Below are positions 28,467-63,905 of a stretch of 64,000 bases of DNA, piece after piece. Numbering within the stretch: position 1 is the first letter of the stretch; every line of letters begins with the position of its first letter. The DNA lies in NCBI GenBank assembly GCA_951406725.2, contig OX597817.1, positions 151,900,001-151,964,000 on the forward strand, written 5' to 3'. The translations under genes were made by a program, and so were the position numbers. Under the pieces are notes generated by a model. The model ran no database searches. It was not told the origin of the DNA and saw only the letters and a list, made by a program, of their open reading frames with translations. The stretch comes from Octopus vulgaris (taxonomy: Eukaryota).

Positions 28467-28555
28467 AAACAAATAAGCGACAATCAACATTCAGTCAGTA
28501 TTAACATACTTTCAGAAATCCAGAAAAAACAGTCGACACTATGTTATCAAAATAC

Positions 28556-29487
28556 ATATGGTTCATGAAAAATATGTTAAACGATATAAATTTATTTAGA
28601 AAATGTTACAAAATATCAATTATAAGCTGGGTAACGACGGTTTGATCTTTGCCTCACAGGGAAATATAGTTCATTGTTTCAGAGAAGCACCTCTTAAATA
28701 CCGCTCACAATTAACTTATTTCTGTAGTCACATATCAAAATATTTTATGAAATATTTTTAACAGCTAATAACTGAATAGTTGCATAACAGTCGCGTAATA
28801 GATGGAAGTCGATTAATCGAATATTTTAATACAAGCGCTAGACAAATATAGCATTTTCTTTACTTAACGTGCATCGAATATCCGTTATTTTTGCTGTTAC
28901 ATATGAAAGGCTAGCGAGTGCTCAAAGACAGCTTTGTAAAAGTCTGTAAGATAGTACAAGCAGTATGAAGATGTTAGACGTTAACGAAAGTGATATTTCT
29001 CGTAATGACTTGAGAAATGATCTTAACGTCAAAGCATCAGCCATTTCTGAATGATGCAATTGTCAATTTCATAATGATGCCATTATAGTTTCCAATCAAG
29101 GAAAATTGCCTTAAATAAAACATTATTACATTTTTATACATTTTTTTTAATGAAGCAGATTTGAAACAAGTTTACTAATTTTGAGGGCGAATCGAACGAA
29201 CGGGAGAATCGAATGAACAGCAGCTAGAAAAGTCAAATATACAGAATTAAAATTTTGACATATTTTATACATTTATTGTTAAAAAGAAACTAGAAGGAAG
29301 CAAATTTGAAATAACTTTACTAATTTTATCGTTAATGCATTTATTATTAAAATTTATTATCTAAAACAATGAACTATATTTCCATGTGAGGCAAAGATCA
29401 AACCGTCGTTACCCAGCTTATAATTGATATTTTGTAACATTTTCTAAATAATTTTATATCGTTTAACATATTTTTCATAAACCATAT
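28556..29487. mobile_element. Non-autonomous TIR element with ~125-bp inverted termini
   Basis: 28556-28679 is the reverse complement of 29364-29487; no internal ORF. Confidence 0.75.
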
Positions 29488-29839: not shown

Positions 29840-30075
29840 ACACGTGTGTTAATATTTGTATAACATCTATAATATAGCAAACAAGAGTATGAAACAGCTG
29901 TAAACGTATATAACACACACACACACACACACACATACACACACACACATATATATATATATATATGTGTGTGTGTGTATGTGTGTGTGTGTGTGTGTGT
30001 GTTATATACGTTTACAGCTGTTTCATACTCTTGTTTGCTATATTATAGATGTTATACAAATATTAACACACGTGT
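29840..30075. repeat. Palindrome centred on (CA)n(TA)n(TG)n; partial third copy at 30757-30885
   Basis: Arms ACACGTGTGTTAATATTTG...CAGCTGTAAACGTATATAAC are exact reverse complements. Confidence 0.9.
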
Positions 30076-44417: not shown

Positions 44418-45257
44418 GGATCTTTTCCTTTTGAACGGCACTTTGTAACATAATTTCTAGGTAACTAAAAAGTTTTAAACTTCGTATTCTGGTAGAATGT
44501 GTTTATAAAACATCATTTTTCTTGGCTTTATTGAGTAAATTCTATATGTTGTAACATATTTCGTCTTTAATTTCGAGCATTTCGGCAATTTTAACCAATC
44601 GCTGACGTCCATTTAGGTAAATAACATTCTGTGCATAATGAATATGTCCCCCCTTTAAGAAACAGATTGGGTTTATTTACATTTGTGAAGAAAAAAGATA
44701 CCCTTCCCCTACTCCTAACCCTAACCCTAACTAACCCTAACTCTAATCCTAAATCTAAAATAGATTGAAATACAATAGATCGATACTAGGGTTATAATTA
44801 TGTGTGACAATTTCATACGACACCGCTACGGAAATGGGATTTTTTTCTAGCGGTGTCAAATGAAAATGTCACCCATAATTATGGACCTACTATCGATCTA
44901 TTGCATTTCAATCTATTTTAGATTTAGGGTCAGAGTTAGGGTTAGGGCTATGGTTAGGGGTTGGGGAAGGGTATCTTTTTTTTCTTCACAAATGTAAATA
45001 AACCCAATCTGTTTCTTAAAGGAGGGACATATTCATTATGCACAGAATGTTATTTACCTAAATGGAGGTCAGCGATTGGTTAAAATTGCTGAAATGCTCG
45101 AAATTAAAGACGAAATATCTTACAACCTATAGAATTTTCTCAATAAAGCCAAGAGAAAATGATGTTTTATAAACACATTCTACCAGTATACGAAGTTTAA
45201 AACTTTTTAATTACCTAGAAATTATGTTACAAAGTGCCGTTCAAAAGGAAAAGATCC
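44418..45257. mobile_element. 840-bp palindromic dimer of a ~410-bp Merlin-like MITE with telomere-like (CCCTAA)n
   Basis: Arms 44418-44828 and 44847-45257 are inverted; TSD ATTGATCA/ATTGATTA. Confidence 0.85.
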
Positions 45258-48960: not shown

Positions 48961-49061
48961 TAAAATCGTTTTTCTTTGGAATAGAAAAAAAGTCTGTCTT
49001 TATTTCTTCTTTTCCTATATATATATATATATTAGAAGGTTTGGAGATGAGGTACAGGTAT

Positions 49062-49314
49062 TATATATTAGAAGAAATAAGGTACTCAGAAATCTGGATG
49101 GTTTTATATTTACAGATATTTATTAATATGTCACATGTTTTTATAAATCATATATCACCGCTTGCGTCCACTCTAGTGGAGTTTTCAGTTTCTGAAGACT
49201 CCACTAGAGTGGACGCAAGCGTTAATATATGATTTATAAAAACATGTGACATATCAATAAATATCTGTAAATATAAAACCATTCCGATTTCTGAGTACCT
49301 TATTTCTTCTAATA

Positions 49315-49318
<4 letters not shown>
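49062..49318. repeat. ~257-bp imperfect palindrome between (TA)n tracts (Penelope-like inverted terminus)
   Basis: Arms are reverse complements about centre 49190; CTGAAGA plus hairpin starts 2 nt from the centre. Confidence 0.88.
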
Positions 49319-49345
<27 letters not shown>

Positions 49346-55547: not shown

Positions 55548-56180
55548 TTAACATGAGAAGTGATTTGACGATCGAGATTTTCTGGAGTGTATACCTTCAT
55601 CTTTTCTTACTAGAGACCATATATGGTCATCATAGCATCATAGCAGTATCCCATCGTCCTTGGTATCTTCTTTCCATAGTTGCAATGTCCTGATGAAATC
55701 TTTCACCATGATCCTCACTTCATGGCGTTTCCAGTACACAGATGTCTTGCAGTCTTCCCGCAGTAGATTCCATTCCTTCAACCTTGATGAAAGAAGTTCA
55801 GCTCCTGATTTAGTAAAACCCAGATCCCTGATTAAATCATCTAGCTCACTCTGATTTGGAAAGTGAAGCTCTGAAGTCGTTCTTGGTACGAAAGCTTCCT
55901 CCATTTCTTGGTTGGTGCTACTTGTTGACTCTTCAGATGAAATATTTTCTGGTAGTAGTGGTACTCGTAAACTGTCATCATGTGAGACAGGTGCTCTAGA
56001 TGATGGTATGTCTGGATACTGAAGAGTTTGTCTTCTTTTCACTTTTCTGTACTTTGTCACATTGATCATACAAAAGTAACAGTCATCGTGATGGTTCTTT
56101 GGCTCTCTGCATACCCTTGGAATGGCAAAAGGCATTGACCTTCCTGTACCTCTTAACCATCCTTCTAGAGTAGACCGACA
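55548..56180 (-). pseudogene. Internally deleted DNA transposase, Chapaev3-like (CMC superfamily)
   Basis: N-terminal WLRG..RSMPFAIPRVCREPKNHHDDCYFC...ELDDLIRDLG.TK..AELLSSRLKEWNLL joined out of frame to C-terminal HGERFHQDIATMERRYQGRWD; family name recalled, not searched. Confidence 0.75.
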
Positions 56181-56296
56181 GTAAAGTGTTCCGAATACGA
56201 TGATCTAAAGGGAAAACTTCAGGTGCCAATATGTGTGTGTGTATGTATGTATGTATGTATGTATGTATGTATGTATGTATGTATGTATGTATGTAT

Positions 56297-57385: not shown

Positions 57386-57426
<41 letters not shown>

Positions 57427-57427
57427 G

Positions 57428-57592
57428 ATAATTTAGGGTATCTAAGAGATACCACCTACGTTGGAAATCGCAGCCAAAACTTGACTCTAAAATCACATTA
57501 TATGTTCATACATGAACATTTAATGTGGTTTAAGAGTCAAGTTTTGGCTGCTATTTCCAACGTGGTGGTATCTCTTAGATACCCTAAATTAT
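57428..57592. repeat. 165-bp imperfect palindrome between (TG)n and (TA)n
   Basis: ATAATTTAGGGTATCTAAGAGATACCACC... / ...GGTGGTATCTCTTAGATACCCTAAATTAT. Confidence 0.88.
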
Positions 57593-57682
57593 AATTTTAA
57601 TTATAATTATTACCTTTGAAGGTTTTTATTCCCATGTTAGCCACCTTATAAGATCAGTATTTAAATAAAGATATTATCCTTA

Positions 57683-62735: not shown

Positions 62736-63385
62736 CATTAATATGTATTTAAATCTGAAGTTGATTTGAAGTCTATCTGAATATGATATTCCATCATGGC
62801 GACATCACGGTGGCTAAAAGAAACTAAAGAACTATTAATGAATTAATAATTTATCAAATTCCCTAAACCAGTGTGTAGGGATCGGGTTTTTTTTGGCTTC
62901 GCTCAATAGTTACACTTGGGAGACAACAGCGTTGGTCTATCAGCCGAAAAGTCAAATGACAAAGAAGATTATATTAGTTCATTCAATTTCCTACAAGAAT
63001 ATATGTAGCTTTATATATGTAAAGTAATTACTTTGTTTTTTTACAATTTTTGTTTTGAAAAATGGGTGCGTACTTTTTGTAGTGCTTGTGAAAAGGGTTC
63101 TGCCTTCTTGGCACTGAAACTCCAAATGAGGCTCCAACTCCAAAGGGTTAAAATGGCTAAAATGTGATTTTAGATACTCTTTTAATTGTTTCTGTCATTT
63201 GACTGCAGCCATGCTGGAGCACTGCCTTTAGTCGAGCAAATCGACCCCAGGACTTATTCTTTGTAAGCCTGGTACTTATTCTGCCGGTCACTTTTTGCTG
63301 AACCACTAAGTAACGGGGATGTAAATACACCAGCATTTCTTGTCAGGCGATGGTGGGCGGGACAAACACAGACATACAAACATAT

Positions 63386-63454
<69 letters not shown>

Positions 63455-63474
63455 ATTTTATTTTATAGAAGGAG

Positions 63475-63521
63475 CTTCTACAGGACTAGAACTGTTTCAT
63501 TCAAATGAAATCATCAGGAAG
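63475..63521 (-). ncRNA. Mirror-image copy of the same hammerhead ribozyme
   Basis: Exact reverse complement of 63523-63569 about centre 63522. Confidence 0.72.
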
Positions 63522-63522
63522 C

Positions 63523-63569
63523 CTTCCTGATGATTTCATTTGAATGAAACAGTTCTAGTCCTGTAGAAG
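63523..63569 (+). ncRNA. Type I hammerhead ribozyme, complete core
   Basis: cuuc CUGAUGA uUUC auuu GAAu GAAA CAG uucuaguc CUG UA gaag; stems I, II and III all form; predicted cleavage after GUA (63565). Confidence 0.75.
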
Positions 63570-63905
63570 CTCCTTCTATAAAATAAATTAATTTACTCTG
63601 CTATGTATTGAGTACCTTATTTACTGTGGTTAACCCCGACTCAACCCGGGACCTACATATATATATATATATATATATACATATATACATATATACGCCG
63701 GGCTTCTTTCAGTTTCCATCTACTAAATCTACTCACAACGCTTTGGTCGGCCTGAGGCTATAGTGGAAGACACTTGCCCAAGGTGCCACACGGTGGGACT
63801 GAACCTGGAACCATGTGGTTGATAAGCTAGCTACTTACCACACAGCCACTTCTGTGCCTTTGCTTTGGCACAATGATAGAAACATGTATGGCTTTGATTG
63901 GTACA

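Follow-up and report, generated by a model that had tools for sequence, protein, structure and literature searches.

Head-to-head hammerhead motifs in a (TA)n tract of Octopus vulgaris: a probable gene-less end pair of a Penelope-like element

What kind of element leaves a perfect palindrome with a hammerhead ribozyme motif in each arm inside a (TA)n tract, and how would its mirror arm have arisen? The question is raised by a locus centred on position 63522 of the window, that is, the whole 64,000-nucleotide stretch of Octopus vulgaris DNA analysed here. We consider it probable (about 0.75) that the locus is a gene-less stub of a Penelope-like element (PLE), probably of the Hydra clade, in which two ribozyme-bearing terminal repeats stand head to head in (TA)n, inserted by the reverse transcriptase (RT)-endonuclease of a full-length relative. 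The palindrome, the hammerhead motifs, the (TA)n target, a multi-copy family, variable centres at one axis and two classes of 3' end are all directly seen.

The palindrome is an inverted repeat with 65-bp arms (63457-63521 and 63523-63587) and no mismatches around the single base C63522, as the initial annotation had described; looser pairing extends the arms to 69 nt (99%, one mismatch). The arms of the element as a whole are unequal, with 70 nt on the left versus 133 nt on the right. The short inverted arm (63453-63522, minus strand, centre base included), delimited by repeat analysis and contigs, comprises a hammerhead and an AT-rich stretch and ends a few bases short of the equivalent of the downstream hairpin. 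On the plus strand, the right hammerhead (63523-63569) is followed by an AT-rich stretch (63578-63594) with AATAAA at 63582, to which a short 3' end class of the contigs maps, by a hairpin of the form ACTC...GAGT and then AC (63595-63615), with TGAGTACCTTATTT at 63609, and by a 3' extension confined to the long arm (63616-63655), which together with the hairpin forms a tail of ~65 nt. The AATAAA and the second motif had been noted before and are present, but the direct run into (TA)n ascribed to them is not, as 33 nt (63623-63655) separate TGAGTACC from the right (TA)n tract. Terminal inverted repeats at both ends were not found, the right end (63593-63655) being without a partner. No ORF is present at the locus, which supports its earlier description as an ORF-less ribozyme insertion of Penelope type. 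Classification as a MITE was rejected, because the arms are unequal, the right end is unpartnered and the centres differ between copies.

The target of the insertion is (TA)n, of which a left tract (63397-63451) and a right (TA)n/(CATATATA) tract (63657-63696) remain on either side. These tracts lie within a common SINE-like host repeat, which is interrupted at this locus into a left part (63181-63396) and a right part (63697-63860). Within the window, blastn returned 21 and 23 matches to the two parts, 19 of them paired in order with this locus included, and the middle of the host repeat measures 300 nt here versus 15-116 nt in the 18 other copies. A target-site duplication is not readable in such sequence, and the same remark is made in PMC8557442. 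The absence of differences over 65 bp bounds the divergence between the arms at ≤4.5% (95%); the insertion can thus be called young, but not necessarily "very young" as the initial annotation held.

Both arms share the anatomy of a type I hammerhead: CUGAUGA, a stem II of U.U plus 3 bp, GAAA, stem III ACAG/CUGU with an 8-nt loop, GUA and stem I. The core motifs are located at 63527 (+) and 63517 (-) for CTGATGA, at 63546 for GAAACAG and at 63563-63565 for GTA, so that the two cores are only 10 nt apart. In the right arm stem I is CUUC/GAAG, the loop of stem III carries the palindrome CUAG, and the cut is predicted after 63565; the left motif (63474-63522, minus strand) has a 5-bp stem I and a predicted cut after 63479. 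A hammerhead descriptor run on both strands of the window recovered two sites only, these two arms, compared with 1 match in 100 shuffled windows (mean 0.01 per window). Descriptor and core motifs together, aided on the right by the motif alignment, confirm the hammerhead motif proposed for each arm. The Rfam hammerhead threshold was not reached, none of the 15 matches with E of at most 1 being to a hammerhead family; standard descriptors are known to miss short variants of PLE type (PMC4209133). A miRNA gene was also considered and rejected, the Rfam miRNA matches being sub-threshold (best MIR5649, 67 bits vs 100) and attributable to generic hairpin noise. Stems I and II covary over 12 aligned motifs, a set biased towards structure since the presence of stems was a criterion for choosing its rows and the search pattern prescribed stem III.

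Folding predictions assign the active fold a share of 0.0002 of the ensemble in the right arm and 0.005 in the left. In the predictions, a competing 8-bp hairpin (63562-63580, plus strand; -6.3 kcal/mol, z -4.8) ties up the cut site together with the stem I 3' strand, and its inclusion lowers the stem I pair probability from 0.04 to 0.00. For a read-through transcript, a long hairpin of -118 kcal/mol is predicted together with a stem I pair probability of ~0, in line with the earlier suggestion that a dsRNA hairpin would compete with the ribozyme fold. As modelled, the hammerhead at this locus would mostly be off. Since the motifs stand head to head on opposite strands, one transcript holds a single sense hammerhead and a dimer requires two RNAs; such a dimer is possible through the CUAG of loop 3, for which a self-dimer is predicted at -12.8 kcal/mol. 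A bacterial promoter scan was empty and has no bearing on this element.

The element is not a singular occurrence. At least half of 13 sampled words were found in 20 of the 24 listed public sequencing runs (12 studies, 6 organism labels), one of which may be the source of the window itself, and the positive runs include contig sets of just 35-60 million letters. Four runs (X1, X4, X5 and X12, at most 3 samples from 3 studies) were compared at 85% likeness, and 379, 1815, 256 and 97 contigs, respectively, fitted the element. No RNA run is listed among those carrying the words, although X12 may be one. Identity was ≥99% for 45%, 43%, 46% and 53% of these contigs, and nearly all exceeded 90%. This indicates many related copies, summed depth not being a copy number, and the homologous copies expected from the initial annotation are borne out by the 97-1815 variant contigs per run. 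Both a short and a long 3' end recur in the family: the sequence passes into (TA)n after 63585-63592 in X4, X5 and X12 contigs, and after 63655 in X1 contigs. At site 63581 an alternative letter accounts for 35-74% of the depth in the family; the two arms in the window are identical there. An exact 26-mer gave 0 matches in metagenome, prokaryote-genome and viral contigs.

The contigs also bear on whether the left arm could be an assembly or library fold-back artefact. In its favour, the window contains a further perfect palindrome of 236 bp on (TA)n at 29840-30075, and the exact 1-nt-centre junction of the 63522 locus is absent among the 32 pieces listed (2527 others being unlisted). What was found instead are contigs crossing the axis with 63522 omitted (2, 2, 4 and 1 in the four runs) or with 63523-63524 omitted (1, 2, 1 and 1). 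X1 record 2 bridges the axis with at least 31 letters on each side, and four further listed pieces do so with shorter sides. The commoner listed form amounts to 3.5%, 0.2%, 22% and 0.5% of the depth at 63522, and the two listed forms make up only a small part of that depth. Because each of the four runs, from three studies, again shows head-to-head junctions with differing centres at this axis, the architecture is not an artefact of assembly. The recurrence of the short-arm end with (TA)n, the asymmetry of the centre base, which matches the family letter on one arm only, and the diverged arms of another element, at 49020-49320 (with 6 mismatches apart from the centre, impossible for an artefact), point the same way, leaving the artefact scarcely credible.

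A non-LTR retrozyme, i.e. a tandem repeat forming circular RNA that was here caught as an inverted pair, would likewise account for the hammerheads, and we regard it as very unlikely. A type I hammerhead with U.U at the base of stem II is known from axolotl HHR_Amex2 (PMC7229834), and retrozymes have been argued to derive from PLE ends (10.64898/2026.07.22.740005). Against this, the unit is ~135 nt and not ~300, both ends run into (TA)n, and a head-to-tail copy is absent from the window as well as from the 9 listed joints in the runs.

The contigs further locate the turn. Just past 63522 the depth drops from 41457 to 1596 in X1, from 333958 to 3066 in X4, from 247 to 66 in X5 and from 13175 to 85 in X12. 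As it runs through 63522 before falling, the centre base is the letter that the family carries in the left arm; there, stem I gains from it a fifth pair, G-C. T is the first letter of the loose ends past 63522 in each of the four runs; in X4 (23 contigs, agreement 0.58) and in X12 (2 contigs, agreement 0.84) they open with TAGCT. This suggests that stem I of the family comprises 6 bp (AGCUUC/GAAGCU) and that a short stretch at the turn, AGCT, is self-complementary; the 6-bp stem is likely, judging from these mixed consensuses (agreement 0.58-0.84). With a fifth and, in the family, a sixth pair, the axis lies inside stem I, 5 nt before the CUGA core, and not exactly at its 5' edge as had been stated.

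A second pair of PLE ends in the window, at 49020-49320, is likewise arranged head to head with (TA)n on both sides. Its centre is at 49190, 2 nt before the core, which is CTGAAGA with a degenerate GCAA for GAAA in both arms; the arms show 6 mismatches beyond the centre, TGAGTACCTTATTT is present on both, and a tail of ~35 nt is present on the left arm only. Its sequence marks it as an older element of the same plan as the 63522 element, with arms that have diverged.

Could the ribozyme structure, namely stem I, then determine where the turn is made, as the initial annotation had proposed? Both window elements turn 2-5 nt before the core (5 nt at 63522, 2 nt at 49190), the family junctions cluster at the same axis, and the intron end of Penelope in Drosophila virilis maps to the 5' end of helix I (PMC4209133). 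On the other hand, stem I is weak and should, according to the predictions, lose to competing folds, the RT would have copied the 3' strand of the stem before arriving at the 5' strand, and published junction palindromes measure 18-38 bp and lie at the 5' ends of pLTRs (PMC3846280). Seven metagenome loci of another lineage (L019, L043, L081, L091, L093, L104 and L106) are head-to-head palindromes of ~200-360 nt, apparently ORF-free, with the axis 64-82 nt upstream of the cores, and a partial eighth twin-hammerhead palindrome (L077) has 62 nt between axis and core. Centres differ between loci of this lineage, and some of the seven may be one locus assembled repeatedly. The 63522 locus is thus not alone in having a twin-hammerhead palindrome, and a turn at stem I is no general rule, so that the ribozyme structure is not a general cause of the fold-back point, and we consider this explanation unlikely. 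At the two window elements, turn and stem I may still be linked locally.

Other inverted or PLE-like sequences in the window are recorded here in their own right. The 236-bp palindrome at 29840-30075, centred on (TA)n, is without a hammerhead core and could reflect either folding back during assembly or an inversion mediated by the microsatellite. An 840-bp inverted repeat at 44418-45257 (91%) has short (CCCTAA)-like runs in each arm and is either MITE-like or another head-to-head insertion. At 57421-57599, a 180-bp hairpin (92%) adjoins (TG)n, and no hammerhead core was seen in it. A minus-strand open frame of 188 aa with a Cys/His cluster (55638-56204) is presumably a fragment of a DNA transposon. 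Finally, 28481-28758 gives a weak, broken match to the endonuclease end of a Hydra-type PLE (tblastn E 0.029; profile E 0.001) and is possibly an old PLE remnant.

Assignment of the 63522 element to a PLE lineage was approached through metagenome contigs, in which a degenerate core pattern found at least 113 matches at at least 111 loci; among the matches listed, 17 have a stem I of at least 4 and a stem II of at least 3. Three loci (L039, L098 and L076) share one order of parts, a hammerhead, an AT-rich stretch and a GCTC...GAGCAC hairpin 37-38 nt past the predicted cut site, and in L039 and L098 the start of a PLE ORF follows. At the equivalent place, the long arm in the window has ACTC...GAGTAC, the counterpart of the Hydra-type hairpin as judged by eye against the supplement of PMC8557442. 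Among the matches listed, with duplicates and 4 short-flank matches removed, the hairpin is present downstream of 3 of the 13 that are fold-competent and of none of the 68 others, and it is found in 3 of 1278 background tiles. Six hairpin-motif sites are present in the window, and the one at 63608 is alone in having a complementary arm together with an upstream core. The competing hairpin over the cut site is weak in L039 and absent from L098 and L076, and so is not a general feature. The downstream hairpin is missing at nine further loci (L022, L031, L033, L042, L052, L055, L064, L069 and L075), whose type I hammerheads are fold-competent and share the core style.

An nhmmer profile of the downstream segments of the three hairpin-bearing loci did not pick out the window element and gave no significant match in the window; the link to Hydra consequently rests on motifs and their order rather than on significant sequence homology. 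Insertion into (TA)n combined with a canonical hammerhead is a feature of Hydra, though not exclusive to it, and (TA)n is also favoured by Neptune and Naiad PLEs, as it is by the 63522 element. The hammerhead lies within the pLTR, and the 5' inverted copy is shorter, head to head and accompanied by a one-ended tail, as in PLE (EN+) elements. No parent ORF was found beside the 63522 hammerhead within the window; in L039 and L098, the same end anatomy is joined to an ORF of RT + GIY-YIG type. L039:1-2936 is a full-length Hydra-type PLE encoding 713 aa. A search with this protein returned 3185 homologues, and among the best 120, in which together with L039 the motifs RWK, DKT and CxCx5C were examined, one is named (from a bivalve) and none is named as octopus. 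No relatives were confirmed among 78 viral and 417 prokaryote contig candidates, and Pfam gave no family for the L039 protein or for three of four homologues, the exception being one weak GIY-YIG match in P0005. Taken together, we consider it very likely that the 63522 element is a PLE end, and its features make membership of the Hydra clade probable.

How, then, would the two arms have been made? We propose that a PLE protein would bind the RNA near the downstream hairpin and nick (TA)n. The RT would begin at the long end (63655), copy the hairpin and the ribozyme, and halt within stem I; the cDNA end would then fold back on AGCT, be recopied as far as the AT-rich stretch and join the other end of the target. 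The mirror arm so produced would be shorter yet identical, and the centre would vary among copies. The hammerhead would be a passenger here, and in the parent it would process tandem transcripts, probably as a dimer or assisted by protein.

The main rival to fold-back is that, in the same element, both target strands were nicked and each primed the RT on its own RNA, one from a long and one from a short start, the two cDNAs being joined through AGCT microhomology. Such two-strand priming is supported by work on a purified PLE protein, a predicted dimer with two start sites, in which both strands were nicked and extended (PMC11167929); (TA)n presents the same target on both strands, and it follows both 3' end classes in the contigs. 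Conversely, the arms are identical over 65 nt including 63581, though about half of the family contigs are <99% alike, an objection that is weak because one master locus would also give identical RNAs. We regard two-strand priming as plausible, at somewhat less than even odds. The identity of the arms at polymorphic 63581 mildly favours one template, i.e. fold-back, over two.

The locus is real, repeated and explained by known PLE biology, and its head-to-head arrangement has already been published (PMC3846280, PMC8557442, PMC4209133). Residual value lies in an abundant miniature family whose junction varies but stays tightly clustered, and in a conserved hairpin that is possibly undescribed; no published description of this repeat family or of the CTC...GAG(C/T)AC hairpin was found in a search of openly accessible literature. 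Tentatively, the family may be an abundant gene-less mini-PLE of ~135 nt (hammerhead, AT stretch, hairpin and tail) that would spread by way of its own RNA and whose mirror arm would be rebuilt at each insertion within a few bases of stem I, with the hairpin as a cis signal bound by the PLE protein. If so, its many copies would serve as natural replicates on how inverted PLE ends form and on any role of the hammerhead; the origin of head-to-head ends and the role of the hammerhead are both stated as open in PMC3846280, PMC8557442 and PMC11167929. As the family is short and abundant, its junctions vary at a single spot and both arms contain a polymorphic site, one good assembly would allow fold-back and two-template formation to be distinguished. 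In genome annotation, such stubs can easily be mistaken for miRNA hairpins, MITEs or assembly fold-backs, which they resemble.

Among known systems, minimal metazoan PLE hammerheads (PMC4209133) share the short stem I, an extra base at the 5' end of stem II and a palindromic loop 3 that allows dimer formation. They differ in that stem III is 4 bp here and G10.1-C11.1 is replaced by U.U and then U-A. The same paper reports hammerhead pairs on opposite strands in Schistosoma, with ~100-700 bp between opposite-strand partners compared with 10 nt between the cores here. Non-LTR retrozymes (PMC7229834) are also non-coding, with a type I hammerhead and many copies, but consist of head-to-tail repeats of ~300 bp that make circular RNA, whereas no tandem is seen at the 63522 locus. 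For the PLE RT itself, initiation at two internal sites and a protein requirement for ribozyme cleavage are described in PMC11167929. In a paper on Octopus vulgaris repeats, recently active Penelope families are listed, the main text being without ribozymes or palindromes, and its supplementary library may hold this family (PMC13282606).

In Adineta vaga, the head-to-head inverted pLTR with a junction palindrome is the commonest form of Penelope, and self-priming on an antisense template was proposed at such palindromes (PMC3846280). The junction at the pLTR 5' end, the shorter inverted copy and the one-sided tail are shared with the 63522 element; the Adineta elements, however, are low-copy and mostly attached to an ORF, whereas the 63522 family is abundant and two ends alone make up the insertion.

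The closest correspondence is with PLEs of the Hydra clade (PMC8557442). Among the published Hydra hammerheads (Files S1 and S2), many rows have an extra U on each side of stem II and several have ACAG/CTGT-A; (TA)n is the target of nearly all. Shared with the window element are a 4-bp stem I, a short stem II flanked on both sides by the extra U, ACAG/CTGT-A, a (TA)n target and a downstream CTC...GAGCAC hairpin. By eye in the supplement, the same hairpin occurs near the ends of the Hydra-2_Amil and Hydra-2_Ajap consensuses and at the start of Hydra-1_Ajap, and Hydra-1_Ajap and Hydra-1_Obim stop 30-40 nt after the ribozyme; the 63522 hammerhead differs in sequence from that of Hydra-1_Obim. Conversely, the 63522 element has no ORF, a turn inside stem I, T-A in place of C-G in the hairpin, a loop 3 of 8 nt versus 1-3 nt in the Hydra table, and a tail of ~65 nt versus the usual PLE tail of 30-40 nt. 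Its two 3' ends can be likened to Hydra ends, which lie either 30-40 nt past the ribozyme or 25-40 nt past the hairpin, and Penelope-13_HM, also of the Hydra clade, has a 5' inverted copy with a ribozyme on both strands, as is seen at 63522.
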